Shown here piece by piece: positions 14,784 through 33,201 of a stretch of 33,201 bases of DNA. The translations under genes were made by a program, and so were the position numbers. Origin of the DNA: an uncultured Gammaproteobacteria bacterium (GTDB lineage Bacteria; Cyanobacteriota; Vampirovibrionia; LMEP-6097). The notes beneath the pieces were generated by a model that was given only the letters and a program-made list of their open reading frames with translations, did no database searches and was not told the DNA's origin. Position 1 is the stretch's first letter. Every line of letters begins with the position of its first letter. Where the stretch lies: assembly GCA_964487825.1 (NCBI GenBank), contig CAZASO010000006.1, forward strand, positions 1 to 33,201. Direction: 5' to 3'.

Positions 14784-14794
14784 ATTGCTCCTTT

Positions 14795-15028
14795 TTATAA
14801 AACTTTGATGACTAATGCGTGGATGCTCTCGTCTGCAAGGTAGTCAGAGAGTGCGGTGTAGACTAGTTGTTGTTGTTTGACTCGGCTAAGTCCCTCAAAA
14901 TCGGCAGCAGAGATTTCTACTTGCCAGTGGTTGCCACCTTTAAGATCTATGGCTCTAACCAAGTGAACGGCTTTTAGGCGTTCTTGGAGACGCTCTTCTA
15001 TATCTTCTGCTCTTAGTACCATGTTCAT
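14795..15028 (-). CDS. bolA: BolA/IbaG-family protein
   Basis: The 77-aa product has the BolA pattern HLVRAIDLKGGNHWQVEISAADFEGLSRVKQQQLVY...IHALVIKV. It lies adjacent to the monothiol Grx partner. Confidence 0.8.
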   Translation of the reverse strand: MNMVLRAEDIEERLQERLKAVHLVRAIDLKGGNHWQVEISAADFEGLSRVKQQQLVYTALSDYLADESIHALVIKVL

Positions 15029-18093: not shown

Positions 18094-19534
18094 CGCTATT
18101 CTCCAACTTTAAAGATATTAACTGGTTTGCTTCTGCTGCAAATTCTCCGGGTAATTCAGCAAAGACTTCTTTGCAAAAACCCCCAATGATAGCAGACAAG
18201 GCATCTTCAAGAGAGATGCCTCTTTGTTGAAGATAGAATAATTGTTCTTCTGAGATCTTAGAGGTAGAAGCCTCGTGCTCTACAGTGGCGCTATTGTTAT
18301 TGATCTCTATGTGAGGGCTGGTGTTGGCATGAGAGTTGGAGCCAATTAACATAGAGTCACACTGAGTATAATTTCTAGCATTCTCAGCACTAGGACTGAT
18401 TTTGACTAGACCTCTATAAGTATTTTGGGATTTGCCAGCAGAGATGCCTTTGCTGATGATAGTTGATTTAGTGTTTTTGCCTATATGAATCATCTTGCTA
18501 CCAGTATCTGCTTGCTGGACATGGTTGGTCAGAGCTACAGAATAGAATTCGCCTACACTGTTGTCTCCAAGCAGGATACAGCTAGGATATTTCCAAGTGA
18601 TAGCAGAACCAGTTTCTACTTGAGTCCAAGAGACCTTGGAATTAATTCCTGCACATTTGGCTCTTTTGGTAACAAAATTATAAATCCCACCTTTGCCATT
18701 TTCATCGCCAGCATACCAATTCTGAACTGTAGAATATTTGATCTCTGCGTTATCCAAAGCTACTAACTCTACGACAGCAGCATGTAATTGATTGCTGTCA
18801 AAAGCAGGCGCCGTGCAGCCTTCAAGGTAGGATACATAACTGTCATGGTCACAGATGATGAGGGTTCTTTCAAATTGTCCTGAGCCTTCGGTGTTGATTC
18901 TGAAGTTGGTAGAGAGTTCCAGGGGACATTTGGTTTTGGGTGGAATATAAACAAAAGTTCCATCACTAAAAACAGCTCCATTGAGAGCTGCATAAAAATT
19001 ATCAGAGCTAGGTACTACGGAAGCTAAGTATCGTTGTACTAGATCTGGATATTCTTGCAGAGCTTCAGAGATGGAGCAAAAAATTATACCTATCTCAGCG
19101 AGAGCTTTCTTGTGAGTGTTAGCGATAGAGACACTATCGAAAATAGCATCTACGGCAATACCTTCTAGGCGTTTTTGTTCTTGAAGAGGGATGCCTAATT
19201 TCTCGTAGGTTCTTAGAATTTCTGGATCTACTTCATCTAGACTGTTTTTGCTGATTTTAGTTTTGGGAGCAGAGTAGTAACTAATGTTTTGAAAATCTAT
19301 TGGCGGATATTGGACTTGAGCCCATGTGGGTTCTTTCATGCGAAGGAATTGTTCGTAAGATTTGAGCCTAAATTCTAAGACAAAACTAGGCTCTTTTTTG
19401 ATTTGAGAAATGCGCCTGATTACACTTTCAGAGAGACCCTTCTCGAAGATGTCAGATTCAAGATCGGTGGTGAAGCCATATTTGTAATCTTGGCTATTAA
19501 GTTTTTCAAGATTAAGTTCCATTAGCTGTGACAC
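18086..19534 (-). CDS. sufB: Fe-S cluster assembly scaffold protein SufB
   Basis: The 482-aa product has typical SufB stretches: [21 protein letters not shown] and [21 protein letters not shown]. Confidence 0.95.
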
Positions 19535-20004
19535 AAATCTCTTCCCTTTAGTTCGCTATGCACTGTTTGCTCGGAGCCAAGAAGTTCTTGTAGTCTGATA
19601 GATTTGAAGTAATTACTCACCATGCTAGAGATAGTGGACCAGACTGGTCTAATAGAACACTCTTTGCTATGAGCACAGACTTCTACTGAACCACTATGAT
19701 TGTTACAAAAATCATCAGCGAAGGCTTCGTCAGAGAGAGCTTGCATGATTTCTAATAAATCAATTTGACTAGCCGTTTTACTAAGACGATAACCACCCTT
19801 CTTACCTCTGACACTTTCTACAATGCAGCCTTTCTTTAATTTAAGTAAGATTTGAGCAGCATAGTCGCTGCTGATTTGTTCAGCTTCTGAAATTTCAGAG
19901 AGAGTTACTAGGTCTCTTTCGCCTTTAGATTTTTTGCTTTCTAAAATCTTCGCTAATTGCAAAATAACTCTCAGTCCATATTCTTCGTTTGCGGTTATTT
20001 TCAT
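19522..20004 (-). CDS. Rrf2-family transcriptional regulator with three-Cys cluster motif (IscR/SufR-like role inferred)
   Basis: The N-terminal winged helix reads [19 protein letters not shown] Cys motif C-x9-C-x5-C is present ([18 protein letters not shown]). It is the first gene of the suf block. Confidence 0.85.
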
Positions 20005-20059: not shown

Positions 20060-20953
20060 TTGACTAAAATTTCAAGTTTAACTCAGAAAATTAAGCTTTC
20101 TTGCTCAATGATCAAAATTGAACATACGCTTTTTTCTTTGCCTTTTGCTTTAAGTTCCGCCTTATTGGCTTTGGATTACCTCTCTAAGAGAGGAGAGTTC
20201 CCTTCTTTGCAGCATTTATCTCTCAGTCTAGTGTGGATTTCACTAGCTCTTTTTGGAGCAAGGTCTATGGGCATGGCTTTGAACCGTATCATAGACAAAG
20301 ACATAGACGCCTTAAATCCTCGCACCAAAACTAGAGAGCTTCCTTCTGCCAAGCTTGCTCTGAAAGAAGCTTATCTTTTGATTTTTTTTGCTTTAATCCT
20401 TTATATTTATGCGACTTTGCACTTGCCTAGGCTCTGTCAAATCCTCTCACCAATTCCTCTTATCTGGGTATCTATTTATCCATATCTCAAAAGATTTACA
20501 TACTTAAGTCATTTATTTTTGGGGACTACTTTGGGGGGAGCGACTTTAGGAGCTTGGATAGCTATAACTGGCAGTATTGATAATATGGCGCCACTTTATT
20601 TGGCTCTTGGAGTTATGTTTTGGGTTACAGGTTTTGATATTGTGTATGCTACTCAAGATCAAGACTTTGATCGCAGTCAGGGACTGCATTCTATTCCTCA
20701 GAGATTTGGTTTTGCTAAAGCCATATGGCTTGCTAGGTTTATGCACCTATTAACGGTTATTTGTTTGTATTTAGCTGGAGAAGTTTTGACTCTAGGTTTG
20801 GCTTATAAATTAGCTATACTTTCTGTGATCTTAGCTCTACTCTATGAACAAAAACTTGTTTCTCAGGGTCGTATAGAGCAAGCTTTTTTTGTGGTTAATA
20901 GCTGGGTCTCTGTTTTGATTTTGTTTTTTGTTGTATTGGAAGTGGCTTGGTGA
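20060..20953 (+). CDS. UbiA-family aromatic polyprenyltransferase (4-hydroxybenzoate/MqnP-like)
   Basis: Both Asp-rich motifs are present: NRIIDKDIDALNPRTKTRELPS and YATQDQDFDRSQGLHSIP. The protein is polytopic. The start is either the TTG at 20060 or the ATG at 20108 (MIKIEHTLFSLPFAL). Confidence 0.8.
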   Translation: MTKISSLTQKIKLSCSMIKIEHTLFSLPFALSSALLALDYLSKRGEFPSLQHLSLSLVWISLALFGARSMGMALNRIIDKDIDALNPRTKTRELPSAKLALKEAYLLIFFALILYIYATLHLPRLCQILSPIPLIWVSIYPYLKRFTYLSHLFLGTTLGGATLGAWIAITGSIDNMAPLYLALGVMFWVTGFDIVYATQDQDFDRSQGLHSIPQRFGFAKAIWLARFMHLLTVICLYLAGEVLTLGLAYKLAILSVILALLYEQKLVSQGRIEQAFFVVNSWVSVLILFFVVLEVAW

Positions 20954-22584
20954 TTGTTTTTCGTTACATTTCTAAATATAGGACTACTTATGCTTGGGGT
21001 TTTCTGATTTTACTTCTAGTAAATTTATTATCAGCCTATATACCCCAACTTATTCGCTCAGCGATCAATCTTCTAGAAAATACTTCTGGGCGGATTCTTG
21101 CTTTGGAGAGTCAGTTGATTAATCAAATAGTTGTTCAAATTATAGTTTTAGCTATTTTGATGGCGTTATTGAGGACTGCTTCTCGATGGCTGATTTTTGG
21201 CTTGGGGAGACAGATTGAGTATGATCTCAAGTCTGATATCTTTCAGCATTTGCTTAGGTTTGAGCCTAAATTCTTTAATAAGTATCAAGCTGGTGACTTG
21301 ATCTCTATTATGACTAATGATGTGCAGTCTATTAGAGGTATGGCTGGTTTTGCTGTGCTTAACTTGCTTAACACTATTATTGCTTTTGCAATCATAGTTC
21401 CTTTGATGTTTAAGCTTAATGCTCTTCTTACAAGTTGTTTTTTATTATTGATACCTTTAGTTTTATTGGTAGTAGCTGCAGTTAGTAAACAAATCAAAGA
21501 CTATCAAGAATTAGTTCAAGAAAAATTAGCAGAGATTAGTAGATTTATAGAACAAAATCTTTCTGCTATTCATATCATCAAAGCCTATGCCCAAGAGGCT
21601 TCTGAGCGGAAGCGTTTTCAGAAACAAAACCAATCCTTATTAGCTGATTACCTCAAACTAGTTCGAGCAAGAGCGTTTATGGGGCCTTGCATGAGGGTGA
21701 TAGCCAGTGCTGGCTTTATACTCCTTTTGTATTTTGGTTCCCAAGCGGTATATAAAGGCGAGTTTAATATTGGTGACTTTGCGGCTTATAGTTTATACAT
21801 AGAGAGATTGCTCTGGCCTATTGGGACTTTGGGTTGGTTGGTTACTATCATTTACAGAGCCAAAGTCAGTGGAGAGCGCATTCAAGGTCTTCTACAAATT
21901 CAGCCAGAGATTTGTGATGCTCCTGATGCTGTCTCTATCCGGGCTTTTGAGCGTTCCATTCAGCTACCTTATCTTTCTTTGAATCCAGTTCCAGAGATAT
22001 TGGCTGGCTCTAGTACTGCCATAGTTGGTTCTATAGGTTCTGGTAAATCCAGATTAGTTCGCAAACTTATGAGGCTAGAAGATAGTCAAGCAGGAGAGAT
22101 CTTTGTAGATGGTCTTGATATCACTAAGATTAGTCTTGAATCCTTGAGATCAGTGTTTTCTATAGTTCCTCAAGAAAGTTTTTTATTCTCTGCTACTGTT
22201 AGAGAAAACATCCTCTATGCCACTAATGATGATAGTTTGGAGCATGCAAGAGCCCTAGCAGAGTTAGTTGCCCTAGATGAAGAGATCTCCAATCTACCCC
22301 AAGCTTATGACACTCTTATTGGTGAGCGAGGCATAACTCTCTCTGGTGGTCAAAGACAGCGCATAGCTATTGCAAGAGCCTTGGCTCGCAAACCCCAAGT
22401 TCTCATCTTGGATGATGCTCTTAGTAGTGTTGATGCTCAGACGGCTGAGTTTATTATGGCTAAGATCAAAAAACTTAGACAAGGGCTCACTACTATATGG
22501 ATTACTCACAAAGCCAGTCAGGCAGAGCAAATGGACAGAGTTTTATTTATGGATTCTTACACTAAACATGCGACACGAAGATAA
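20947..22584 (+). CDS. ABC exporter permease/ATPase fusion, subunit 1 (degenerate-site half: Walker B followed by Asp)
   Basis: It has six TM helices plus an NBD. Walker A is GSIGSGKS, the signature is the canonical LSGGQRQRIAIARAL, and Walker B is VLILDD (Asp replaces the catalytic Glu). The GTG start overlaps the upstream stop (GTGA). Confidence 0.85.
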   Translation: MVIVFRYISKYRTTYAWGFLILLLVNLLSAYIPQLIRSAINLLENTSGRILALESQLINQIVVQIIVLAILMALLRTASRWLIFGLGRQIEYDLKSDIFQHLLRFEPKFFNKYQAGDLISIMTNDVQSIRGMAGFAVLNLLNTIIAFAIIVPLMFKLNALLTSCFLLLIPLVLLVVAAVSKQIKDYQELVQEKLAEISRFIEQNLSAIHIIKAYAQEASERKRFQKQNQSLLADYLKLVRARAFMGPCMRVIASAGFILLLYFGSQAVYKGEFNIGDFAAYSLYIERLLWPIGTLGWLVTIIYRAKVSGERIQGLLQIQPEICDAPDAVSIRAFERSIQLPYLSLNPVPEILAGSSTAIVGSIGSGKSRLVRKLMRLEDSQAGEIFVDGLDITKISLESLRSVFSIVPQESFLFSATVRENILYATNDDSLEHARALAELVALDEEISNLPQAYDTLIGERGITLSGGQRQRIAIARALARKPQVLILDDALSSVDAQTAEFIMAKIKKLRQGLTTIWITHKASQAEQMDRVLFMDSYTKHATRR

Positions 22585-24277
22585 ATCACAAACCAATTTT
22601 GCTTTACTTGCCTTGTTAGTGCCCTTCATTAAGCCCTACTATAAACGGGCTTTGTTGATTTTGATGTTTTTGCCTTTAGGCTCTCTTGCTTATTCGATAC
22701 AACCTACCATTATTCAAAAAGCCATAGATGGACCCATTAGTTCTTTTGCTCATTATCACAGCCTTTCAGCCTTTCTCTCTGCTTTGTATCCTTATATTTT
22801 TGCTTTGCTTGCTGCGATAGCTTTGAATTTTTATGTTCAGATTAATATGCTTTATTCCATCAACGACCTTGGTCAGCATATGGTTGCAGATATTAGGACC
22901 AAACTTTTTCAGCATCTAGAGTCTTTACCTATGACTTTTTTTGACAGGACTCCTGTTGGCAGAAATGTAACCCGCATCACTAATGATATGGAGCAATTAG
23001 CAGATAGTTTCGCTGGTGGGTTGATACTTATCGTTGTAGACATCGTGAATGCTATTGGAGTTATAGCTTTTATGTCTTACTTGAATTTGCGATTAAGTTT
23101 AGCTGTCTTGTTCTTACTCTTACCTATGTATTTTATCGCGAAGCATTTTCAAGAACAATTCCGCAAAGCCAATCTACTAGCGAGGTCTGAGCTATCACGC
23201 CTGAATTCTTTTTTGCAGCAAGCAGTTATAGGTGTGGATGTAGTGCAGGCTTTGAATGCTGGCAAGCAAAGCATGTCTAAGTTTGCAGCCATCAATAAGC
23301 AATATTACAAAGCCAATGATGACAGTATCAAAGCAGATGCTTCATTCTCTGCGACTATCGAATTAGTCGCGATTGCTGCTGTAGCTCTTTTGATTTTTCT
23401 TAGTAAAGAAATACTTATGAGCGGCACTCTGATTAGTGTTGGGGTGATCATAGCCTTCCTCCAATACGCCCAGACTCTCTTTGATCCTATCCGTAATCTT
23501 TGTGACAGGTTTAGTATCATACAGGCAGGCTTTACCGCAGCAGAGCGAGTCTCTCAACTTTTGAGTGAAGAAGAGAGTATTAGGGAGCCAGAATCACCTC
23601 AATCCTTAACTGAGCTGGCTAGGATACATGGCAGAGACTTCCCTGCTATAGAATTTCGCAATATTTATTTTAGATATAGCGAAGATACAGATTGGATCTT
23701 AGAGAACTTCAATCTCACGATCAAAGCCTCTGAGAGAGTGGCTTTGGTGGGGAGGACTGGCTCAGGCAAGAGCAGTATCGTCAAACTGCTCACTAGATTG
23801 TATGAGCCTCAGAGGGGGGAGATTCTGATTAATGGGGTTAATATTTGCAATTTTCCTCAAGAAGAACTCAGGGCTTTTGTTGCAGTGATACATCAGGATT
23901 CTTATATTTTTGCTGGAGATCTCAAATCCAATATTCTTCTGGATAGAGATCACTGTGACCTAGACTTAGCCAAACCATATATCCAAATCTTGTCAGAGAG
24001 AGCTATTGAGCTAGATACTTCTTTGGAGCAACGAGCTACTAATATTTCTAGTGGTGAAGAACAACTTATTAATTTCGCTAGAGCCATAGTGTCTAGGCCC
24101 AAAATCTTAGTTCTAGATGAGGCCACTGCCAAAATAGATCTTAAGACTGAGAAGATTTTACTAGAGGCCTTATCTGAGTACAGGCAAATAGAACAATGTT
24201 CTGTATTAGCTGTAGCTCATAGAACAGAGACTCTCTCTGATTTTGATAAAATCATCAATATTTCTGAGGATTCTTAA
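22568..24277 (+). CDS. ABC exporter permease/ATPase fusion, subunit 2 (consensus Walker B-Glu, degenerate signature)
   Basis: The ATG at 22568 (MRHEDKSQTNF...) overlaps the upstream gene by 17 nt. Walker A is GRTGSGKSS, Walker B is ILVLDEAT, and the signature is degenerate (ISSGEEQ). The longer ORF from 22370 is an out-of-frame read-through of subunit 1. Confidence 0.85.
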   Translation: MRHEDKSQTNFALLALLVPFIKPYYKRALLILMFLPLGSLAYSIQPTIIQKAIDGPISSFAHYHSLSAFLSALYPYIFALLAAIALNFYVQINMLYSINDLGQHMVADIRTKLFQHLESLPMTFFDRTPVGRNVTRITNDMEQLADSFAGGLILIVVDIVNAIGVIAFMSYLNLRLSLAVLFLLLPMYFIAKHFQEQFRKANLLARSELSRLNSFLQQAVIGVDVVQALNAGKQSMSKFAAINKQYYKANDDSIKADASFSATIELVAIAAVALLIFLSKEILMSGTLISVGVIIAFLQYAQTLFDPIRNLCDRFSIIQAGFTAAERVSQLLSEEESIREPESPQSLTELARIHGRDFPAIEFRNIYFRYSEDTDWILENFNLTIKASERVALVGRTGSGKSSIVKLLTRLYEPQRGEILINGVNICNFPQEELRAFVAVIHQDSYIFAGDLKSNILLDRDHCDLDLAKPYIQILSERAIELDTSLEQRATNISSGEEQLINFARAIVSRPKILVLDEATAKIDLKTEKILLEALSEYRQIEQCSVLAVAHRTETLSDFDKIINISEDS

Positions 24278-24717
24278 GAACCGAAATATTTCTTGAGAAA
24301 AGTTTCATCTAAACTAAATTTGCCAGCTCCATGACTAAATAAGACGGAGAGCATCATGAAATAATAAAGAGCTATCTCAAAGCCACCATCTCTTGCTGCA
24401 AATACTTGAGTTCCGTGTACCAAAAAAATAGCAACTAACATCACTGCCATTAAAGGTAAAGCTATAAAACGAGTTCCCAGACCTAAAATCAGCAAAGCCA
24501 CTCCCAGAGCTTCACTTGTGGTTGCAAGAAAAGCCATAAGCTCTGCTGCTGGTAAATGTAAGCCGTCTCGGAACCATATGATGATGTTGTCGAAATGATT
24601 GATTTTTTTGATAGCTGGCTCAAAAAAACCATAAGCGAGAATTATTCTCAGCAAGAGAAGAGAAAGGTTCTTGGATCTTCCGAATAATTTAGTTAAACCT
24701 TGTGATAATTTATCCAT
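24274..24717 (-). CDS. DoxX-family membrane protein
   Basis: The 147-aa product has four helices. Its LLLLRIILAYGFF...FLVHG...GGFEIALYYFMMLSVLFSHGAGKFSLD pattern is typical of DoxX. Confidence 0.75.
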   Translation of the reverse strand: MDKLSQGLTKLFGRSKNLSLLLLRIILAYGFFEPAIKKINHFDNIIIWFRDGLHLPAAELMAFLATTSEALGVALLILGLGTRFIALPLMAVMLVAIFLVHGTQVFAARDGGFEIALYYFMMLSVLFSHGAGKFSLDETFLKKYFGS

Positions 24718-24792: not shown

Positions 24793-26184
24793 ATGCTACA
24801 GAAATTTTTTAGTAACGAAGAAAATAGTTCAGCCAAATTTTTTCTATTTTCTGCGGTAGTTTGGCTGGTAATTGGCATGGGACTAGGCCTTCTAGGGGCC
24901 CTTGAGTTTTCGGCGCCAGATCTCACCAAAGGCATTCCCCAGCTATCTTTCACCCGTATTCGCCCAGCGCATGTAAATATAGTCGCTTTTGGCTGGCTTT
25001 CTATGGCGAATATAGGCTCAGCTTTATATATGATTCCAGCTCTTTGTAAGACCAAACTCTACTCAGAGAAGCTTGCTAATTTTGTTTGTTGGGTTTGGAA
25101 TGCTGTTGTGGCTTTTGGCGCGATTTCCCTTCTGAACGGTTACACGGAAGGCCGCGAATATGCTGAGCTTAGAGAACCTTTTGATGTTCTGGTTATAGTT
25201 GGTCTGATTCTACTTTCTTATAATCTTTTCCGTACAGTCCTAAACCGCCAAGTCAAGAAACTTTATGTTTCAGTTTGGTATATCATGGGCGCTTTTTTTT
25301 GGATGCCTTTTGTTTATATGGTAGGCAACCGTACCTTCGTTGCCATGGATGGTCTTAATGACGGGATTATGAACTGGTTCTATGGACACAACATACTCGG
25401 TATGTGGTTTACAGTTCTTGGTGTTGGTATCGCTTATTACATGCTACCTAAGATGAGCGGTAAACCAGTTTGGAGCCACTCTTTATCTATGCTAGGTTTT
25501 TGGACCATAGCTTTTTTCTATGCACCTACAGGTACTCACCATCTTTTGCAGGCCCCAGTCCCTGAGTGGCTTAAAGCCCTTGCAGTAATTTTTTCTGCGG
25601 CTTTGGTTATCCCAGTTATTTCTGTTCTCACTAATTTCTATATGACTATGAGAGGTAGTTGGTGGATGCTCAGTACTAATATGCCTCTTAGGTTTGTTAT
25701 GACAGGAGCTTTGTTCTATCTCTTTACTTGTATCCAAGGACCCTTTCAAGCTACTCGTGGTGTCAACTGGTATATCCATTTCACCCAGTGGGTTGTAGGT
25801 CATGCTCATGCTGCTTTGCTTGGTACTTTTACTTTCTTTGTTATAGGCTCTGTTTATTATGCTGTTCAGCGTTTTACTGGCAGACGCATTTATAGTGTTC
25901 GTTTGGTCAAATGGCATTATTGGTTATTGTTTATAGGTTTCTCTATATTTTATTTGGTTTTAACTGTAGCTGGTTTACAGCAGAGTGCAGGTTGGGCTTT
26001 GGGTTATCCAGTAGCACAATGGTCTCTAGTACTGGCTCCCATGTGGTTCTGTAGGGCTATTGGTGGAGCGATGATGTTCTTGTCTAGTTGTCTTTTTGCA
26101 TACAACATCTACATGACTATGAATAATCCTTCACTCTCAGATGAAACCGAATTGCAGATAGCAGTCCCAGTGGAGAAAAATTAA
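24793..26184 (+). CDS. ccoN: cbb3-type (C-family) haem-copper oxidase catalytic subunit I
   Basis: The low-spin haem His is in IRPAHVNIVAFGW and a CuB His is in WFYGHNILGMWF. The cross-link Tyr plus the CuB His pair are in FFYAPTGTHH, with Tyr 6 residues before the first His as in CcoN. The haem b3/b His pair is in WVVGHAHAALLG. Confidence 0.9.
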   Translation: MLQKFFSNEENSSAKFFLFSAVVWLVIGMGLGLLGALEFSAPDLTKGIPQLSFTRIRPAHVNIVAFGWLSMANIGSALYMIPALCKTKLYSEKLANFVCWVWNAVVAFGAISLLNGYTEGREYAELREPFDVLVIVGLILLSYNLFRTVLNRQVKKLYVSVWYIMGAFFWMPFVYMVGNRTFVAMDGLNDGIMNWFYGHNILGMWFTVLGVGIAYYMLPKMSGKPVWSHSLSMLGFWTIAFFYAPTGTHHLLQAPVPEWLKALAVIFSAALVIPVISVLTNFYMTMRGSWWMLSTNMPLRFVMTGALFYLFTCIQGPFQATRGVNWYIHFTQWVVGHAHAALLGTFTFFVIGSVYYAVQRFTGRRIYSVRLVKWHYWLLFIGFSIFYLVLTVAGLQQSAGWALGYPVAQWSLVLAPMWFCRAIGGAMMFLSSCLFAYNIYMTMNNPSLSDETELQIAVPVEKN

Positions 26185-26186
26185 TA

Positions 26187-27254
26187 ATGGCAGACGATAA
26201 AAACAAAATTGGTGCAAAAGGCTATATTCTTCCCGCTTTAGTTGTAGCGATTTCTTTCTTTACTATTTACACAGTCACTGTAATTATTCCAGATATGGCT
26301 GTCTTTAAGGCAGAGCCTAGTGCCTATGCTACAGAGTATGTGCAGACTAATGCTGATGGGGAGCTACTCTTAGATGCTGCTGGCAAGACCCAACTCAATG
26401 ACGCTGGTAAAGGGCGTGCCATCTATGTTAGAGAAGGTTGTTTTTATTGTCATTCTCAGTTTGTTAGACCTCAAGACAGAGATTTTGGCTCAAAAGTCCA
26501 AGCAGGTGACTATGCTAATGAAACCCCCAATGTCTTAGGTACATCTAGGACTGGTCCAGATCTTAGTAACGAAGGTGGCAAGATGCCAGATGCTTGGCAT
26601 TTAGGGCATCTCAAATCCCCGCGCAATTATACGCCGGGTTCCATCATGCCTTCTTTTAGCTATTTAGAGGATGAAGACCTTAGACTTCTTGTAGCCTATA
26701 TCCAAACCTTAGGCCGCAAGCGGATGGAAGATCCTGCGAATCGCTCTGTTTATGAGGCTTTCTATCCAGAAGCTGATACTGCTCTCTGGGAAGCCTCCAA
26801 AAAACACAAACCCAATGTAGATAGTGCAGCTGCAGCCAACTCTGGAGCAGGTATATTCAGGCAGAATTGTGCAGTTTGTCATGGACTCAATGGACTTGGT
26901 AATGGACCGAATGCTCTTGCCATGAACAAGAAACCAGCTAATTTCTCTAATCCTTTCTTCCTCAAATATACTAATGAGACTTGGTACTATAAAGTCGCAG
27001 AGGGAGTTCCGGGGACTCGCATGCCTCGCTGGAAGCTCAAACTAGAACCCCAACAAATGTGGTATCTAGTGGCTTACCTCAAAACCTTGCCTCGCCAAGA
27101 CGGACCTATTATTGAGCCCTATCAGTCTATAGATTTGGATGCATGGAACCAGCAGTCTGCTATAGATCCTCGCATCTTAGATAATTTCAAAAGATTAGAA
27201 GCTGCCAAAGCCGCTTCCCCAGCGGCATCTACGGAAGGAGCGTCAGGTCACTAA
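26187..27254 (+). CDS. ccoO: CcoO-like monohaem subunit II fused to an extra C-terminal class I cytochrome c domain
   Basis: It has an N-terminal TM anchor. CcoO motifs are GRAIYVREGCFYCHSQFVRPQ, SRTGPDLSNEG and SIMPSF. A second haem site, CAVCHGLNG, follows with the distal Met context GTRMPRW. Confidence 0.85.
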   Translation: MADDKNKIGAKGYILPALVVAISFFTIYTVTVIIPDMAVFKAEPSAYATEYVQTNADGELLLDAAGKTQLNDAGKGRAIYVREGCFYCHSQFVRPQDRDFGSKVQAGDYANETPNVLGTSRTGPDLSNEGGKMPDAWHLGHLKSPRNYTPGSIMPSFSYLEDEDLRLLVAYIQTLGRKRMEDPANRSVYEAFYPEADTALWEASKKHKPNVDSAAAANSGAGIFRQNCAVCHGLNGLGNGPNALAMNKKPANFSNPFFLKYTNETWYYKVAEGVPGTRMPRWKLKLEPQQMWYLVAYLKTLPRQDGPIIEPYQSIDLDAWNQQSAIDPRILDNFKRLEAAKAASPAASTEGASGH

Positions 27255-27436
27255 TGATAGATAGAGCTTACTTGCATCAGTGGATACTTAGCACTTTTCA
27301 CAAAGAAAGTCTTGCTGCTTTTGCTCTGACTTGCGTGTTCTTTTTTTTGACTTCTTTGCTTTTTGCCAAATGGGCTATGGATCACGGACAATTCACTAAT
27401 CTTGAAGAATCAAAACTGGAGATGATGGAGTTATAA
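27254..27436 (+). CDS. small single-TM protein (possible CcoQ-like accessory subunit)
   Basis: The 60-aa ORF is coupled by a TAATG overlap to the upstream gene. It has one hydrophobic helix (LAAFALTCVFFFLTSLLFA). No family was recognised. Confidence 0.5.
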   Translation: MIDRAYLHQWILSTFHKESLAAFALTCVFFFLTSLLFAKWAMDHGQFTNLEESKLEMMEL

Positions 27437-27439
27437 ACT

Positions 27440-27625
27440 ATGGATGAGATGTCGCCAATAGATCTGGATACAGGAAGAGGAGTGCCCAAAGAATTTATTA
27501 GAGGAGCCCTACCTACAGAAGAGTACAGAGTTGGTCACCATAAACCACCTTTGTTTTTAGTCGTTCTCTATGTCTTGGTTATAGTCTGGGCTGCTATTAG
27601 TTGGATACCTTTTTATGGCTACTAA
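27440..27625 (+). CDS. small single-TM protein, unknown
   Basis: The 61-aa ORF starts 3 nt after the previous stop. It has a C-terminal helix (PPLFLVVLYVLVIVWAAISWIPF). Confidence 0.5.
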   Translation: MDEMSPIDLDTGRGVPKEFIRGALPTEEYRVGHHKPPLFLVVLYVLVIVWAAISWIPFYGY

Positions 27626-27626
27626 A

Positions 27627-28421
27627 ATGAAACACACTAAACTCAAACTCCTCTCTGCCGCTCTCCTAGTGGCTTTTATGTTGGGAGCTTGTTCTTCTTA
27701 TGACCCCAACAAATCAGGGCGCACCAAAGAACTTCAGCAAGTACTCTTGGATCCCAAAGCTAGCGCAGAAGATCTAAGCTATCCAGCTTATGATCCTTCC
27801 ATCATCAAGGGCAAAGAAATTTATAAACAACATTGTGCTGCTTGTCATGCTACTAGTGCTGGACTTCCAGACCGCATCCTTACTAAAGATTATCTCAGGA
27901 CTCGTAGCCCTCAAGATCAATACCTGACTATAGTTCGGGGCAACTCCAAAGGTATGCCGAGCTTTAGAGATACTCTCACTAGAGATCAAAGATGGGATGT
28001 GCTTATGTATCTTAGATCAGAAGTCTTAGGTTATTTTCCTTTGAACTCTGAGGCTCTATCCGAGATGGACAAAATCTTTGGAGCGAACTGTGCTGTTTGT
28101 CATGGTACTAGAGGTGATGGAGATGGTCCTCTACACAAATCACTAGAACCCAAACCTGCTGACTTCAATATGTTTAGTAGACTTTATACTCGTTCTGACA
28201 ATAAAATCTTCGATGAAATCTCCAATGGTATTCCTTGGACAGCCATGCCTGCATGGAAAGACCGTTATGATTATGATTTACATTATGCTTTTGATGAAGA
28301 GCTTAGATGGAAACTTGTGAATTATGTTCGTCAGTTTGCTTTTTCACAAGAGATTTTCAGATTAGATCAAGGCCGTCAGCGCATCGCTGAATATAAAGCC
28401 AAACTAGGAGAAGCCAAATAA
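27627..28421 (+). CDS. dihaem c-type cytochrome, lipoprotein
   Basis: The ATG at 27627 lies 1 nt after the upstream stop. It gives the signal peptide MKHTKLKLLSAALLVAFMLGAC with a lipobox. Two CxxCH sites are present (CAACH, CAVCH). An alternative in-frame ATG lies at 27615. Confidence 0.8.
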   Translation: MKHTKLKLLSAALLVAFMLGACSSYDPNKSGRTKELQQVLLDPKASAEDLSYPAYDPSIIKGKEIYKQHCAACHATSAGLPDRILTKDYLRTRSPQDQYLTIVRGNSKGMPSFRDTLTRDQRWDVLMYLRSEVLGYFPLNSEALSEMDKIFGANCAVCHGTRGDGDGPLHKSLEPKPADFNMFSRLYTRSDNKIFDEISNGIPWTAMPAWKDRYDYDLHYAFDEELRWKLVNYVRQFAFSQEIFRLDQGRQRIAEYKAKLGEAK

Positions 28422-28423
28422 TT

Positions 28424-29038
28424 ATGAGTAATCAGTTTGATAGAAGAGACTTTATCAAAGCTTTGTTAGCCATACCCGTGATTGGTTCTTTTGCAGCTTT
28501 TTTGATGTCGCCTTTTGTTCGCTATCTCAAACCTACTTCTGGTCCTTTGGCTACGGCTGAAGTTTTTAAGAGACCAGACAAACCCTCTCCAGTAGAGGTT
28601 ATTAGGTTTCCTGTTGCAGATTTTTCGGAGCCTTGGTCCTTCAAATATTTTATGTTTCAAGAGACCAATCGTGAGTATACAGCGGTAGGAGAACAGATCA
28701 AAACCATACCTGGAGCTGTTGTTAGGCTTACTACTAGTACTAATGGTGTTCCTGATTTTGTAGTTTTTAGTAGAGTCTGCCCGCATCTAGGTTGTGTTTT
28801 CAATTTCGTTCCAGTAGAAGCTGAGGTTGCTGCTGGTTATAACTACAGCCCCAAACCCGGTCAAAAAGTTTTTGCTTGTCCTTGTCATTTGTCTGTCTAC
28901 GATCCTATGCAAGAAGACACCAAAGGCAGAGGCAAAGTCGTATCAGGACCAGCTCCTAGGTCTCCCTTTAAGTTTAATTTCGAGGTCAAAGAAGGCACTA
29001 TATCTATTAGTAGTCTTGAGTCAGGAGGTATATCCTAA
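28424..29038 (+). CDS. Rieske [2Fe-2S] protein with Tat signal
   Basis: The twin-arginine motif is RRDFIKALL. The cluster boxes are CPHLGC and CPCHLSVYD. Confidence 0.9.
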   Translation: MSNQFDRRDFIKALLAIPVIGSFAAFLMSPFVRYLKPTSGPLATAEVFKRPDKPSPVEVIRFPVADFSEPWSFKYFMFQETNREYTAVGEQIKTIPGAVVRLTTSTNGVPDFVVFSRVCPHLGCVFNFVPVEAEVAAGYNYSPKPGQKVFACPCHLSVYDPMQEDTKGRGKVVSGPAPRSPFKFNFEVKEGTISISSLESGGIS

Positions 29039-29040
29039 GC

Positions 29041-30468
29041 ATGTTAGCGATAGCTCAGCAATTAGTTAAATTCATTGAAGCCAAAATCAAAAATATAGAT
29101 TTTTTTGATGAAAGTTTTGTCGATAAACAAAGAGACAATGTTTGGTACAAACTTGGTCCTCTCCAGTGGATCACTTGGATGCTCACTGTTCTTTCTGGTT
29201 TGATTTTGGTGATGTGGTATATCCCTACCATGGATGAGGCTTACGATAGTATCATCATCATCCAAGAACATATCCCTTTCGGTTGGTTGATACGAGGCAT
29301 GCATAAATATGCAGCAGATGCTTTTATAGTGGTTTGTACTATGAAGATGTATCGTATGTTTATTTGCGCGGACTACAAAGGCAATAGAGAACTAAATTTA
29401 TGGATTTGTTTTTTCTTGCTGCTTTTAGGTTTTTATTCTGGTCTTTCAGGTTATCTACTGATTTGGAACCAAAGAGCTTTCTGGGCTACCAAAGTTTTTG
29501 CAACCTTCCCCGGCTATATGGATCAGTTTGGTCTCAATTTAGCTTTTCTGGGAGATACAGTCGTCAAGAAGCTTCTAGAGCTAGGAGTCCCTACTTCCCT
29601 GCCGGGAGTCGGAGTGCTCTGGGATATGAAACTACTCAACCAATACATCAACCTTAATATGGGTATGGTGACTCAGCAAATCCTTCTAGGAGGTAGTGCG
29701 ATAGGACAAGCTACTATCACAAGGTTTTACTCTATGCATATGGCTCTTTCTACTTTGGGAATTATCGTAGTGGAGTTGTATTTTTATAGCAACAAGAAAA
29801 AACGCTTCAATATCCCTTGGTCAGAGGGTTTCCTTGTTATAGCCATGGTGGCTGCGGCGGCTACAGTGTTTCCTGCAGAGATGGGTGCTCGTGCTAATCC
29901 CTCTGTAACACCTTTGCCTATACTTTCGGATTGGTATTTCTTGGCTCTTTATCAGATGTACAAATACATAGAGCCAGTCCTAGCTACTTTCATCACGATG
30001 CTTATACCTCTTACTGTACTCTCTGTACCTTTCTTTGATACTGGCAAAGAAACGAAGATCTGGAGACGACCTATCATCATGTCTCTTTGTATTATGGGAG
30101 CCCTCAATACCATAGCCTTCTCTGCTCTCATTATTATGAATATTGCCAACATCAATACAGACCCACCCTACTGGATTTTTGCTAGTACTATGATAGTTGC
30201 GGTAGGTATTTATTTTTCAGAGCTTCAGAGGGGCCGTAATCGCTGGAAGCTATTCTCTCTCTACACTCTGTTCATGTTGCTCTATTTATCTCGTATCCAT
30301 ACCGTGCCATATTTTGCTTTGACTGCTTTAGAGCCTCTACTCAAAGACACTATGTTTGCTGATGGACCTTGGGGGCGTATGTGGATTTTCTATGGAGGCT
30401 TTGCTCTCTTACATCTTTTGGTTTTAGCTATGGAGCGCAATTTAACTAAGGAGACTACGAAGTCGTGA
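29041..30468 (+). CDS. cytochrome b (full-length, extended C-terminus) lacking the two haem bH axial His ligands
   Basis: [28 protein letters not shown] aligns without gaps to b6 [51 protein letters not shown] aligns to [23 protein letters not shown]. A PEWY-type Qo motif is present as SDWYFLALY. Extra TM helices follow at the C-terminus. Confidence 0.85.
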   Translation: [475 protein letters not shown]

Positions 30469-30773
30469 AGAATTTTTCTTGGACTTACGCTTCAGTTTTT
30501 CTTTTAGCCACTTTTGCGCTATCTGGATTTTTTAATGCAGATGAATATTTCCAATCAGGGGATCTAGGGCGAGGTTTTTTTATTTCAGCTTTGAGTTTTC
30601 TTCTTTTCATTTTGGCTTTGATTTATATGGCTTACCGCATTTATGCAGAAGAAAAACAAAAATCTAATCTAAGAGTTCAATGGGGAATTTTTGAATATTT
30701 ATACGCAAGAGACCCCCAATATTCTTCTCAAACTCAGGCGCAAGATAAAACAAGGAGTTCAAATGTCAGCTAA
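30465..30773 (+). CDS. hypothetical two-TM membrane protein
   Basis: The 102-aa ORF has a GTG start overlapping the cytochrome b stop (GTGA). It has two hydrophobic helices. No family was recognised. Confidence 0.5.
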   Translation: MKNFSWTYASVFLLATFALSGFFNADEYFQSGDLGRGFFISALSFLLFILALIYMAYRIYAEEKQKSNLRVQWGIFEYLYARDPQYSSQTQAQDKTRSSNVS

Positions 30774-31104
30774 TAAAAAAAGCGATAATAATTTTATTAT
30801 AATAGCCTCCCTAGTAGCCTTGGCGAACTTGGCTGTCTTTGGCTTAATGTTTACCTTAATGGGATATTTTGAATTACTTGGTGCTGATAAATCTTATTTC
30901 GACGAAGGCAGTCTCAATAATATTCAGATTATAAATAGTCTAACTCAAGTTTTTGGTTTCAAAATAGATCCTATGCAGCATATCAAGATTAGTACTCTTG
31001 CTTATTCTGTTTGTTATGGTGTGGCTCTGCTTTCTACTGGGCTTAGTATTTTTATTGCGACTAGAAAAGCAAAAGAGCAATATGAGGTGAGTGATTGTGT
31101 TTAG
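30763..31104 (+). CDS. hypothetical two-TM membrane protein
   Basis: The ATG at 30763 is preceded by AAGGAG with a 5-nt spacer. The longer frame from 30691 lacks an RBS. The product begins MSANKKSDNNFIIIASLVALANLAVFGLMF.... Confidence 0.5.
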   Translation: MSANKKSDNNFIIIASLVALANLAVFGLMFTLMGYFELLGADKSYFDEGSLNNIQIINSLTQVFGFKIDPMQHIKISTLAYSVCYGVALLSTGLSIFIATRKAKEQYEVSDCV

Positions 31105-32218
31105 TGTAATAGTAAGACAAGGGCAAAAATTATTTCTCAGGATAGAGGATGCTATTAATCGCATCTTTGGATCCGAGCAGAACATACTCTACTATCATGG
31201 TGCTGTTCCTAATTTCTTTCTCTGGGTTTTATTACTCTCTGGACTTTTACTTTTTGTCTACTATATGCCAACCCTAGAGGGTGCTTATTTATCAGTTGAA
31301 TATATTACTGGCAAAGTCGCTTTTGGTGACATGATCAGAGGCATACACCGCTATGCTGCTGATGGCATGCTCATAGCAGTTTTATTGCACGCTCTTAGAG
31401 TTTATTTTACGGATAGATACCGTCAGTATCGTATTATTGCTTGGTATTCTGGTATCGCTTTATTGTTTATGATGACCATCATAGGCATCTCTGGCTATAT
31501 CCTAGTCTGGGACGAGCGTTCATATATTATAGTCATGAAATTAGCAGACTTATTGAATTCTATTCCTTTGATAGGACCCGGTATGGCTCATGCTTTTATC
31601 AATGATGATGTCATTTCCAATTACACAATGTCCATGGCTTTCTTTTTACATACAGGAATGTCTTTCGCTCTGCTGGTGATGTTGTGGGTCCACTATATGC
31701 GTATTTCTAGACCAGTCGTTAATGTCTCTTGGGGCATAGGATCTCTATTGATGGGAATAGTGCTTGTGGTAGCGGGGCTCTATCCAGCGAACTCAGGTCC
31801 AGAAGCAGTTATGACGCGGGTCCCAGAGTATTTTGCTATGGATTGGTTCTACTTATGGTTATTTCCTTTGATGGATAATCTTGGTAATTTAGCTACGGTT
31901 TTGTTTATAGTAGCCCTGACAGTTTTCTTAGTGCTCTTGCCCAACTTTGTTGATGGAGGGGATAGAGAACCAGCTTTAGTAGACTCTGATCACTGCGTTG
32001 GCTGCAAACTTTGTTCTATAGATTGTCCTTACGAAGCTATTTATATGGCTCCTAGAACTGATGGCAGCAAATACAAAGAAATCGCAGTCGTAATCAGTGA
32101 CCGCTGTTCAGAGTGCGGACTCTGTGTTGGAGCTTGTAATTTTGATGCGATAGAGATACCAACTCTAAGGTCTCCTGTTGTGATGGATGATATAAGGATA
32201 GCTCTACAAAAAGCTTAG
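31091..32218 (+). CDS. cytochrome b paralogue (four His ligands intact, six TM helices) fused to a C-terminal 2x[4Fe-4S] ferredoxin domain
   Basis: Helix B reads GIHRYAADGMLIAVLLHALRVYF (H86/H100). Helix D reads FFLHTGMSFALLVMLWVHYMR (H187/H201). An ef-loop motif AMDWFYLW is present. Two ferredoxin motifs follow: CVGCKLCSIDCP and CSECGLCVGACN. The start is the GTG at 31091 or the GTG at 31097; the latter has better spacing to GAGG at 31085-31088. Confidence 0.8.
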   Translation: MIVFSVIVRQGQKLFLRIEDAINRIFGSEQNILYYHGAVPNFFLWVLLLSGLLLFVYYMPTLEGAYLSVEYITGKVAFGDMIRGIHRYAADGMLIAVLLHALRVYFTDRYRQYRIIAWYSGIALLFMMTIIGISGYILVWDERSYIIVMKLADLLNSIPLIGPGMAHAFINDDVISNYTMSMAFFLHTGMSFALLVMLWVHYMRISRPVVNVSWGIGSLLMGIVLVVAGLYPANSGPEAVMTRVPEYFAMDWFYLWLFPLMDNLGNLATVLFIVALTVFLVLLPNFVDGGDREPALVDSDHCVGCKLCSIDCPYEAIYMAPRTDGSKYKEIAVVISDRCSECGLCVGACNFDAIEIPTLRSPVVMDDIRIALQKA

Positions 32219-32226
32219 GAGATTTT

Positions 32227-32655
32227 ATGGCAGAAAGCACTACAAGCAAATCAGCAAAAGAAGTTCAAATAGTAGTTATCGCTTGTCGTCGTAGCGTAAA
32301 CCTCGATGGGCAACTAGAAGAGACTACTAAACTCAAAGGAGTCTCTAACTGTCAGGTTATACAAGTACCTTGTAGCGGCATGATACAACCCCGCATGATA
32401 GAGTCTGCCTTCAAAGCAGGTGCTGATGGCACTATAGTTATGGGTTGCCAAATAGGTGATTGTCATTTCCGCGAGGGTAATAAGTTCTGCCGTGAAAGAC
32501 TTCTTGGCAAAAGACCACCAGTCATCAAAAAATCTGTTCCTAAAAATAGACTTAGAGGTTTTTGGATGTCAGAAGTGCAACTGGCTGATTTCAAGTCTAG
32601 GATTGAAGACTTCAAGGGACATGTTGCAGAAGAACTTTCTAAGGAGACCAAATAA
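32227..32655 (+). CDS. MvhD/FlpD-like Fe-S protein (methyl-viologen-reducing hydrogenase delta-subunit family)
   Basis: VIQVPCSGMIQPRMIESAFKAGADGTIVMGCQIGDCHFREGNKFCRERL and RLRGFWMSE match the FlpD/MvhD core. The N-terminal CCNWC-type motif is reduced to IACRRS. AGGAG lies 5 nt upstream of the ATG. Confidence 0.75.
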   Translation: MAESTTSKSAKEVQIVVIACRRSVNLDGQLEETTKLKGVSNCQVIQVPCSGMIQPRMIESAFKAGADGTIVMGCQIGDCHFREGNKFCRERLLGKRPPVIKKSVPKNRLRGFWMSEVQLADFKSRIEDFKGHVAEELSKETK

Positions 32656-32762
32656 TGAGCAAAGACAATGTTTCGGTTCTTTTTGAGAATATAGTTTTTT
32701 ATTTGATATTTTTTTTCAGTCTATTGTTAATCGCAAGTTTTGGCATTATTGCAGAAGCTTAA
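32655..32762 (+). CDS. unannotated 35-codon ORF, predicted single-TM peptide
   Basis: The ATG at 32655 overlaps the MvhD-like stop (TAATG). AAGGAG at 32641-32646 lies 8 nt upstream. The product is MSKDNVSVLFENIVFYLIFFFSLLLIASFGIIAEA. It is below the 60-aa cut-off of the ORF track. Confidence 0.4.
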   Translation: MSKDNVSVLFENIVFYLIFFFSLLLIASFGIIAEA

Positions 32763-32763
32763 T

Positions 32764-32811
32764 GCTCGCTGTCTTGCAACTCATCTACGCTCGCTGTCTT
32801 GCAACTCATCT
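32764..32811. repeat. perfect tandem direct repeat, 2 x 23 nt (GCTCGCTGTCTTGCAACTCATCT) separated by AC
   Basis: The copies at 32764-32786 and 32789-32811 are identical. The 25-nt period is not a multiple of 3. The repeat starts 2 nt after the stop of the last ORF of the operon. Confidence 0.9.
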
Positions 32812-32836
32812 GCTGTGTTGTGCTTCGCTGCATTGT

Positions 32837-33095
32837 AGCTAGCTGAGCACTTGCTACTTAGCCTAGGCTCGAGCTGGCTTCGCACAAGCGCAGTTAAGCT
32901 CATCACCTCATCGCTAACGCGCCCATTCGGCTCGGCACCAGCACATGGCATTTTGCTACGCAAAACGCTCATGGCTGCTGAACTCAGGGTCCTTCGCCCC
33001 TCGCCATGGTCGCTAGCTCTCTCGGCTCTTCGCTAATCTGCGCTAGTACTCACACAGATTCTCGCTACGGCTAAGAGCAAGTACTCAGCTAAGCT
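32837..33095. other. GC-rich non-coding element closed by a long imperfect inverted repeat (candidate structured RNA or MITE-like element)
   Basis: The arms at 32837-32873 and 33061-33095 can form about 32 Watson-Crick pairs with four small bulges and one mismatch. An internal hairpin lies at 32944-32973 with 12 pairs. Local G+C is about 53-60%, against about 38% in flanking genes. There is no credible ORF. Confidence 0.5.
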
Positions 33096-33201
33096 TTCAA
33101 AGCCGTTTACCTAGTGCTTTATAGGAAGATTCGATAAATAATCATTTTGGCTCGGTATCTCGGTTATAGACTAGAGGACTATGCGCTCACACTTTAGGCA
33201 T

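Follow-up and report, generated by a model that had tools for sequence, protein, structure and literature searches.

A cytochrome b-ferredoxin fusion and its MvhD-like neighbour in the Rieske/cytochrome b-cbb3 operon of Vampirovibrionia: a candidate transmembrane electron wire from an oxidase-associated protein family

Results and discussion

On a stretch of 33,201 nucleotides (nt) from an uncultured bacterium (assembly GCA_964487825.1, contig CAZASO010000006.1, positions 1 to 33,201; hereafter the window), a cytochrome b with a C-terminal ferredoxin-type domain (b2::Fd, or b2) is encoded directly upstream of an FlpD/MvhD-like iron-sulfur protein (FlpD), within an operon that also encodes a cbb3-type oxidase, a Rieske protein and a second cytochrome b (b1). 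An initial annotation of this DNA had taken b2 for a paralogue that arose within the Rieske/cytochrome b complex and the pair for a new electron branch of that complex. Sequence comparison places it elsewhere: b2 is a member of a large and separate cytochrome b-2x[4Fe-4S]-FlpD family, of which the b2::Fd/FlpD gene pair is the split form, and the module is tied primarily to haem-copper oxidases and is not an invention of the Rieske/cytochrome b complex. The earlier reading is thereby partly supported, in that the architecture, the topology, the partner lacking haem bH and the uncharacterised status of the module all hold, and it is reframed in that b2 becomes a recruited member of an oxidase-associated family. 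As for function, we tentatively favour, with somewhat less than even confidence, a role of b2::Fd, FlpD and the micro-protein s5 as a transmembrane wire, i.e. as subunits of a complex III-IV assembly in which b1 would find its outlet via b2 and the iron-sulfur (Fe-S) arm would serve mainly for electron input.

A bc-type cytochrome b with a cytoplasmic iron-sulfur extension

The open reading frame (ORF) of b2::Fd (31091..32218, + strand) specifies 375 amino acids (aa). The true start is probably the GTG at 31097, because a ribosome-binding site (RBS) reading GAGGTG is present at 31084-31089 and the homologues begin with MF...; from this GTG, the residue numbers of the initial annotation shift by -2. 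The protein consists of the cytochrome b helices A-F (aa ~29-287) followed by a 2x[4Fe-4S] domain (aa 295-356, nt 31973-32158). Pfam recovers Cytochrome_B over aa 29-205 (E=2.5e-27; PF00033 at 96.4 bits against a cut-off of 27.2) and Fer4, Fer4_21 and Fer4_7 over aa 295-356 (E ~1e-9 to 1e-10). The families matched by the cytochrome b part, Cytochrome_B and Cytochrom_B_N_2, are those of the bc-type, and the closest solved structures are cytochrome b6 chains (E=2.4e-26). The four histidines in helices B and D that form the ligand sets for haems bL and bH (H86, H100, H187, H201) are invariant in 77 homologues, and so are the eight cysteines of CVGCKLCSIDCP and CSECGLCVGACN (C302, 305, 308, 312, 339, 342, 345, 349), which make up two CxxCxxCxxxC(P) motifs within ~55 residues, as is typical of bacterial-type 2x[4Fe-4S] proteins; two such clusters are predicted. 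The architecture originally proposed for b2 thus stands.

An AlphaFold2 (AF2) model built from the 77-sequence alignment has a mean predicted local distance difference test (pLDDT) score of 82.8, with values >90 through most of the membrane part. In it, helices A-D are followed by helix E (214-230), by an ef helix (257-264) that carries DWFYLW and by helix F (266-286), in agreement with the two flanking helices and the PEWY-like AMDWFYLW loop that had been read from the sequence before. Foldseek aligns ~283 columns of the model to bc1 cytochrome b. Compared with the cytochrome b of the b6f and bc1 complexes (PetB+PetD, QcrB), b2 therefore has the same N-terminal domain, the same four ligands in helices B and D, superposable helices A-F, and a gene located near those for a Rieske protein and a dihaem cytochrome c. 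The differences are that b2 ends after helix F, with only E and F beyond helix D and no PF00032 match (the subunit IV region), that DWF replaces PEWY (DWF.L is kept at the ef loop) and the cd helices are not conserved, that the protein carries 2x[4Fe-4S] on the N side, that its partner b1 lacks haem bH, and that b2 falls outside the canonical b/b6 proteins in the tree described below. Taken together, b2 looks like a carrier of haems bL and bH that has no well-kept Qo pocket. Its N-side loops, on the other hand, are highly conserved (YYHG, TDRYRxYR and HYxRxxRP). The first of these, at aa 34-37 (31190-31201 of the window), is an invariant YYHG where cytochrome b6 has FYCL and the fusion family has F/Y-x-L-G, and puts an N-side histidine near haem bH; in cytochrome b6, Cys35 of the FYCL is where haem cn is covalently attached.

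The Fer4 domain, which the initial annotation had likewise placed in the cytoplasm, and FlpD are both cytoplasmic, because six transmembrane (TM) helices with the canonical N-in topology precede the former, because the loop charges agree (the D-E and B-C loops are Arg-rich and the E-F loop is acidic), and because fused relatives have one further TM helix after FlpD, followed in some cases by a cytochrome c, which must be periplasmic. That the Fe-S domain might face the P side is ruled out by the six N-in helices, by the lack of a signal peptide in FlpD, and by the TM helix and cytochrome c of the fused relatives.

The gene for FlpD (32227..32655, + strand; 142 aa, cytoplasmic) begins 8 nt past the TAG stop of b2 with AGGAG upstream, so that the 8-nt gap and the good RBS noted earlier are confirmed along with the MvhD assignment itself: the protein matches PF02662 (E=1e-23, 84.1 bits against a cut-off of 22.3) and the MvhD chain of the solved Mvh-Hdr structure (5odc_D, E=3.6e-16), and its C20, C49, C74 and C79, which align with cysteines of MvhD/VhuD, are invariant in 74 orthologues. 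The order of modules is that of HdrA2, of which residues 572-641 are matched by the Fer4 domain of b2 and residues 640-770 by FlpD. Unlike in the MvhD and HdrA2 systems, the HdrA flavoprotein, HdrBC and hydrogenase are absent from the window and from the related Vampirovibrionia loci examined, and the module is joined to a membrane cytochrome b and an oxygen-reducing chain. The HdrA or [NiFe] hydrogenase with which MvhD-type proteins associate is, as the initial annotation had already noted for the window, encoded neither there nor downstream of the operon in the two related loci for which genes were called; this search did not extend to whole genomes.

In complexes of the QmoABC, HdrED and DsrMK type, too, a membrane cytochrome b with two haems is connected to Fe-S clusters in the cytoplasm, and QmoB has an MvhD-like domain. 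However, the cytochrome b of those complexes is of the NarI/HdrE type, whereas a bc-type fold is present here, and they contain HdrA-like or CCG-domain catalytic subunits, whereas neither a flavoprotein nor a CCG domain is encoded in this operon.

The Rieske-partner cytochrome b lacks the ligands of haem bH

The cytochrome b that accompanies the Rieske protein (b1; 29041..30468, + strand) consists of an N-terminal domain (Cytochrome_B, PF00033, 82.9 bits), a subunit-IV-like C-terminal domain (Cytochrom_B_C, PF00032, E=4e-7) and extra helices. Its ligand positions, read from the alignment to b2 and to cytochrome b6 (PDB), show the pattern H,[K/R],H,Y: both histidines of haem bL are kept and the positions of the bH ligands are occupied by K/R and Y, in 74 out of 74 distinct orthologues from three orders. 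The loss of haem bH that had been proposed from the single sequence is thus a fixed property of the protein. The cd1 helix and the elements of a PEWY-type ef loop are nearly invariant (YSGLxGYLLIWNQRAFWATKVFATFP and VTPLPILSDWYFL represent the conserved Qo elements), and b1 looks like a working Qo/bL subunit that lacks bH and Qi. Decay of b1 to a pseudogene or degenerate copy is ruled out by the invariance of the bL ligands and Qo motifs and by the fixation of K/R and Y across three orders.

Because the bH ligands are lost, b1 would require a second haem that is close enough for electron transfer, and the one candidate that the operon offers for such a partner haem chain is b2, through its haem bL. 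If b1 can be re-oxidised only in this way, a b1/b2 heterodimer or an equally tight contact would follow.

Relative to cytochrome b6, b1 has a ~45-aa insertion between the cd region and helix D (aa 163-206) and additional C-terminal helices (aa ~380-475). The orthologue of Obscuribacter phosphatis (locus L063, 7309-9210) is 633 aa long and has a long, apparently soluble C-terminal extension.

A widespread family of single-chain cytochrome b-2x[4Fe-4S]-FlpD proteins

When 1.84 billion cluster representatives were searched exhaustively with HMMER, 314 matched b2 at E<1e-30, most of which are 480-790 aa long and align to b2 residues ~10-370. According to Pfam, the members of this family are single chains composed of Cytochrome_B, 2x Fer4 and FlpD. 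Among the top 148 representatives, whose domains were examined, FlpD is fused in 120 and both Cys motifs are found in 142. The fusions share 30-40% identity with b2 over ~350 aa, including the four His, the eight Cys, DWF(Y)L and an SRP after helix D; the four His occur in all fusion family members, and the haem bL ligands and the P-side DWF motif are kept also in those members that have no Rieske protein. In a neighbour-joining tree the b2 proteins of Vampirovibrionia group with the fusions and b1 groups with the canonical b/b6 proteins. An origin of b2 inside the Rieske/cytochrome b complex is therefore not borne out, and a recent duplication of b1 is likewise ruled out, given the ~23-25% identity between the two and the clustering of b2 with the fusion family. 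That the gene pair corresponds to a split domain fusion argues strongly for FlpD and b2::Fd acting in physical contact.

In the fusions, a TM helix and, behind it, a ~150-aa periplasmic domain (X) usually come after FlpD; X has no Pfam match even at E<=5 (FixG_C and cupredoxin were tried) and is probably beta-rich. Its copies have in common the motif C..RER.PV.L....DG...Y.P.G...DG (L087, 9578-10111, and the C-termini of P0250, P0247 and P0257), and in a Rokubacteria locus it has a gene of its own. In a few members the chain ends in a cytochrome c, and one (P0278) has a SCO1 domain fused at its N-terminus. What sets the Vampirovibrionia form apart is that FlpD is a separate gene and that the TM helix and X domain have shrunk to at most the 35-aa s5. 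The members with a taxonomic name come from SAR324, Nitrospira, Deltaproteobacteria/Thermodesulfobacteriota, Planctomycetes, Rokubacteria, Spirochaetota and one euryarchaeal metagenome-assembled genome (MAG), and their annotations are generic only ('hydrogenase iron-sulfur subunit', 'cytochrome b N-terminal domain-containing protein').

In eight of nine fusion loci the gene order is small ORF - subunit II (~175 aa, with a complete CuA motif, CNE[YF]CxIGHHxM) - COX1 - (UbiA) - SCO1/SenC (usually) - fusion, and none of those eight has a Rieske gene beside the fusion; L085 has a separate Rieske/cytochrome b cluster ~5 kb off on the other strand. The presence of a haem-copper oxidase in the gene cluster is thus shared with the window (here CcoN), with the difference that the Vampirovibrionia oxidase is C-type (cbb3) and not CuA-type, and that a Rieske protein and the bH-less b1 are present as well. 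The adjacency to CuA-type oxidases, SCO1 and UbiA, without Rieske, is what ties the module primarily to haem-copper oxidases and speaks against a branch invented within the Rieske/cytochrome b complex.

Genes for nirS and Rrf2 occur alongside the fusion in three loci, and because of this neighbourhood some of the fusion-linked oxidases may be nitric oxide (NO) reductases of the newly described families; the survey of these families does not mention such a partner (PMC11214002). More specifically, in L087, L090 and L092 the fusion-linked CuA oxidase clusters adjoin nirS (cytochrome cd1), genes of the haem d1 biosynthesis type or Rrf2 regulators. Only two genes for cytoplasmic redox partners were seen near the fusions: one is NuoF-like and is flanked by a fusion on either side (L085), and the other, for a small 2x[4Fe-4S] ferredoxin, comes directly after the archaeal fusion. 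L084 and L088 encode a ~265-aa membrane protein with one CxxCH. On the single metagenomic contig L085 (4069-21349), two fusions flank the NuoF-like gene, and two COX1 genes, UbiA, SCO1 and a rhodanese gene are present as well; the cluster on its other strand combines Rieske, cytochrome b and multihaem c genes with one for a GltD-like NAD(P)-type flavoprotein. The latter resembles the bifurcating Rieske/cytochrome b complexes proposed for anammox bacteria, with their NAD(P) oxidoreductase subunit; the operon in the window differs from these in that it contains no flavoprotein gene.

In the literature that could be searched, we found no characterisation of the fusion family or of the b2::Fd/FlpD module, so that the view of this architecture as uncharacterised stands. 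A Chloroflexi protein with b6, DMSOR_beta-like and FlpD domains is listed in a table row elsewhere, where it is not discussed (PMC8756737).

Conservation of the operon within Vampirovibrionia

In a scan of one genome per GTDB species, 184 species were found to contain a relative and 80 loci were kept. In every kept locus with enough flank the gene order is ccoN - ccoO/P - s1 - s2 - dihaem c - Rieske - b1 - (s3, s4) - b2::Fd - FlpD, and this order spans three orders of the class. The operon ends after s5, beyond which the genes vary from locus to locus (URO-D, a hydrolase, a sigma factor). The named homologues stem from MAGs of Melainabacteria, Caenarcaniphilales, Obscuribacterales or Vampirovibrionales; identity is 70-87% for the closest of them, among which are loci that bear the label Caenarcanales or Caenarcaniphilales (~70-75%). 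The window belongs to Vampirovibrionia (Melainabacteria), and within these its nearest relatives are the Caenarcaniphilales. The operon is contained in many GenBank MAG records with the title 'uncultured Gammaproteobacteria bacterium' (L004, L005, L007-L009, L011, L019, L026 and others), and single operon-bearing loci are titled Chloroflexota, Proteobacteria or Flavobacterium psychrophilum; these records are probably mislabelled or contaminated bins.

The cluster itself has been described before. A 'petB, petB, petC' set beside type C oxidase genes, and a 'complex III/IV combination', were reported for Melainabacteria (PMC6349859; the gene set in Supplementary Note 6), and this cluster is identical to the one studied here, and a complete respiratory chain that includes complex III and a cbb3-type terminal oxidase was reported for Obscuribacter (PMC4040986). 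The two reports differ from the present analysis in that they mention neither the ferredoxin fusion, nor the MvhD-like gene, nor the loss of the bH ligands in the first petB, nor the kinship with the fusion family.

A tentative mechanism and its alternatives

The III-IV operon encodes ligand sets for haem bL, haem bH, two [4Fe-4S] clusters and one [2Fe-2S] cluster, which together span the distance from the P side to the cytoplasm; the occupancy of these sites, the heterodimer, the partner and the direction of flow are what we infer from there. In the mechanism that we propose, b2::Fd, FlpD and s5 would be subunits of the Vampirovibrionia Rieske/cytochrome b-cbb3 assembly, a structural role that is suggested by their stoichiometric and translationally coupled placement between b1 and the end of the operon. 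The chain would run from haem bL (P side) via haem bH (N side) and the two [4Fe-4S] clusters to the cytoplasm-exposed [2Fe-2S] cluster of FlpD. The most simple arrangement would be a heterodimer in which b1 pairs with b2 via the usual cytochrome b dimer interface, and in which, after quinol oxidation, the electron on bL of b1 exits via bL of b2.

From b2, three exits are conceivable: (a) along the Fe-S arm to a cytoplasmic acceptor, (b) at a Qi-like site near haem bH, or (c) on the P side to cytochrome c and the oxidase. We prefer the third because an outward wire agrees best with the family-wide link to CuA-type oxidases in the absence of Rieske, with the members fused to cytochrome c, and with the two neighbours, ferredoxin and NuoF-like. 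The Fe-S/MvhD arm would then mainly bring in electrons from a low-potential cytoplasmic carrier, e.g. ferredoxin, which pass via bH and bL of b2 to c-type haems and the oxidase, and the electron on bL of b1 would drain by the same P-side route and not to a low-potential cytoplasmic acceptor. The direction of flow, with the Fe-S arm as mainly an input, is the least certain step and is put forward with modest confidence.

Several points weigh against this proposal. The b1/b2 heterodimer is hypothetical, and the AF2 model is of low confidence in its Fer4 domain (pLDDT 45-60), too low for cofactor distances to be read from it. Neither the window nor the related Vampirovibrionia loci examined contain a gene for a cytoplasmic partner, and the direction of flow is derived from two partner genes in unrelated organisms and from textbook midpoint potentials. 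In canonical cytochrome b, haem bL lies below bH in potential, which favours flow from the P to the N side. The conserved N-side loops of b2 fit a docking surface and a Qi-like pocket alike, so that there may be a quinone site at its haem bH. Finally, draining bL of b1 to cytochrome c would amount to a designed short circuit that forfeits the Q cycle.

The same evidence can be cast in a bolder form, which we regard as possible but more doubtful than the wire just described. In Vampirovibrionia, which are sister to the oxygenic cyanobacteria, the core of the complex would be an obligate heterodimer of a one-haem, Qo-only cytochrome b and a two-haem cytochrome b that ends in three N-side Fe-S clusters, either in place of a Qi site or beside it; the bL-bL passage between the monomers would be the sole route, and the b chain would directly give electrons to, or take them from, a carrier in the cytoplasm, e.g. 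ferredoxin. By extension, the wider fusion family would represent a hitherto unrecognised class of respiratory modules that links cytoplasmic Fe-S carriers to haem-copper O2 and NO reductases in bacteria and archaea.

The first alternative is the model of the initial annotation, in which the low-potential electron from the Qo site of b1 crosses the b1/b2 heterodimer via bL, bL and bH to the Fe-S/MvhD arm and reduces a cytoplasmic acceptor, such that a bifurcation output replaces the Qi site. Part of it stands: b1 indeed lacks bH in all orthologues and has an intact Qo region, b2 supplies a bH and then N-side clusters, and the usual order of potentials favours this direction; the L085 contig moreover carries, as mentioned, a Rieske/cytochrome b cluster with a GltD-like flavoprotein, which is similar to the proposed anammox complexes. 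An output at the level of ferredoxin or NAD is thermodynamically doubtful, however. With menaquinol at ~-74 mV and a menaquinol-type Rieske centre at ~+100 to +150 mV, the low-potential electron would arrive on the P side at ~-250 to -300 mV, and since the cost of moving it inward across the membrane potential has still to be subtracted, exit (a) could not reach ferredoxin or NAD+; only acceptors at or above ~-100 mV would be possible, and none is encoded nearby. In addition, the same module occurs in other phyla without a Rieske gene beside it, half of the respiratory electrons would return to the cytoplasm, and the NuoF-like and ferredoxin neighbours fit electron input better. A low-potential bifurcation output is consequently the less likely direction, and the model as a whole seems unlikely to us.

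The second alternative keeps the Q cycle and gives it an additional door: haem bH of b2 would have a Qi-type site, b1 and b2 would run an obligate inter-monomer Q cycle, and the Fe-S/MvhD arm would allow reduced ferredoxin to reduce quinone. It has long been proposed that cytochrome b6f acts as a ferredoxin:quinone reductase of this kind during cyclic electron flow. Among the solved structures, b6 is the closest to the cytochrome b domains of both b1 and b2, the N-side motifs of b2 are very conserved, including YYHG at the position of Cys35 in b6, and Melainabacteria are reported to have a ferredoxin-linked metabolism and an NDH-1 that lacks NuoEFG (PMC6349859). Nevertheless, Qi residues cannot be identified in b2, and both the adjacency of the family to CuA-type oxidases, which cannot oxidise quinol, and the conservation of bL and the P-side DWF in members without Rieske are left unexplained, which makes this variant rather improbable.

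Least probable of all is that b2::Fd/FlpD forms a homodimer whose sole client is the oxidase, to which it would donate electrons or which it would help to mature or repair as a reductase (e.g. of copper, by analogy with the membrane protein CcoG, which likewise has 2x[4Fe-4S] and has a beta domain at its C-terminus), and is merely co-transcribed with the bc genes: although the family-wide neighbours are oxidase structural genes and the maturation genes SCO1/SenC and UbiA, and P0278 even carries an N-terminal SCO1 domain, this would leave the orphan haem bL of b1 without an outlet, the X domain has no FixG_C or other Pfam match and is absent from Vampirovibrionia, and the stoichiometric, translationally coupled position suggests a structural subunit.

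Implications

As far as the sequences can tell, the interest of the system lies in b1 as a conserved one-haem cytochrome b and in a fusion family for which we found no characterised member in the literature searched. If the heterodimer exists, electrons would be compelled to pass from one monomer to the other in a naturally occurring bc-type complex; to our knowledge, such inter-monomer transfer in bc1 has been shown only with engineered heterodimers. The complex would at the same time be a case of a low-potential haem chain that is hard-wired to cytoplasmic Fe-S chemistry. Because Vampirovibrionia are the closest non-photosynthetic relatives of cyanobacteria, such a wiring would bear on the debated route from ferredoxin to b6f in cyclic electron flow. 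The fusion family, in turn, is a candidate for the missing electron-entry component of CuA-type haem-copper oxidase clusters or clusters resembling NO reductases. Annotation pipelines currently mislabel both genes.

Other genes of the operon and the window

The operon is a tightly packed series of 12 genes on the + strand (24793-32762) that encode the cbb3 oxidase, a dihaem cytochrome c, the Rieske protein, b1, b2::Fd, FlpD and five small membrane ORFs; from b1 to s5, neighbouring start and stop codons overlap or are separated by a few nt. It opens with the CcoN-like catalytic subunit of a C-type (cbb3) haem-copper oxidase (24793..26184; Pfam COX1 E=7e-92, NCBIfam ccoN E=8e-88, below the cut-off of that model), followed by CcoO (FixO) with a fused C-terminal, CcoP-like cytochrome c domain (26187..27254; Pfam FixO and Cytochrom_C). 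Between the oxidase and cytochrome c genes are two small single-TM ORFs, s1 (27254-27436) and s2 (27440-27625), for which tblastn gives syntenic matches in most loci. The dihaem cytochrome c (27615..28421; Pfam Cytochrome_CBB3 and Cytochrom_C) contains CxxCH twice, and its N-terminus is hydrophobic and ends in LGAC, a possible lipoprotein signal. The Rieske [2Fe-2S] protein (28424..29038) has a twin-arginine N-terminus (RRDF) and the boxes CPHLGC and CPCHLS, and scores 21.5 bits with the Pfam Rieske model (cut-off 20.3); the NCBIfam Rieske and PetC models match below their cut-offs.

Two small ORFs that are membrane proteins by hydropathy and belong to no Pfam family lie between b1 and b2, i.e. 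s3 (30465-30773) and s4 (from an ATG at 30763 to 31104), the latter overlapping the start of b2; both are kept in the Caenarcaniphilales loci and are weak or absent by tblastn in the Obscuribacterales loci. The final gene, s5 (32655..32762), has an ATG that overlaps the stop of FlpD (TAATG) and encodes a 35-aa single-TM micro-protein, with tblastn matches at 48-82% identity in many loci, genes of 39-48 aa called at the same position in L001 and L003, and an Obscuribacter orthologue with which it shares the C-terminus ...LLIA.FG..AE.; it is thus a conserved micro-protein of 35-48 aa, and it may be what is left of the TM helix located behind FlpD in the fused relatives. None of s1-s5 has a Pfam match even at E<=5, including to FixG_C and cupredoxin.

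Scans of the window for Rfam families, tRNAs and repeats had no outcome of relevance to the b2/FlpD module. Downstream of the operon, a 23-nt perfect direct repeat (GCTCGCTGTCTTGCAACTCATCT, two copies, spacing 25) occupies 32764-32811 and begins a relatively G+C-rich segment (32760-33120) with no convincing ORF, Rfam match or tRNA. The remainder of the window contains flhA, tgt, uvrA, a suf operon with an Rrf2 regulator, a UbiA gene, an ABC pair and DoxX. At the start of the window, an 892-aa ORF (159-2837, + strand) with no Pfam family at E<=1e-5 precedes a small gene with a prepilin-type N-terminal methylation motif. The suf Fe-S assembly cluster (SufB, SufC, SufD, SufS-like Aminotran_5), the Rrf2 regulator and a glutaredoxin (14460-20004, - strand) are located near the Fe-S-demanding operon. 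Directly upstream of the latter (20060-24717) are the genes for the UbiA prenyltransferase, for two ABC_membrane+ABC_tran proteins with a CydDC-like architecture (a candidate identity) and for DoxX, and the ABC pair is also found upstream of the operon in locus L001.

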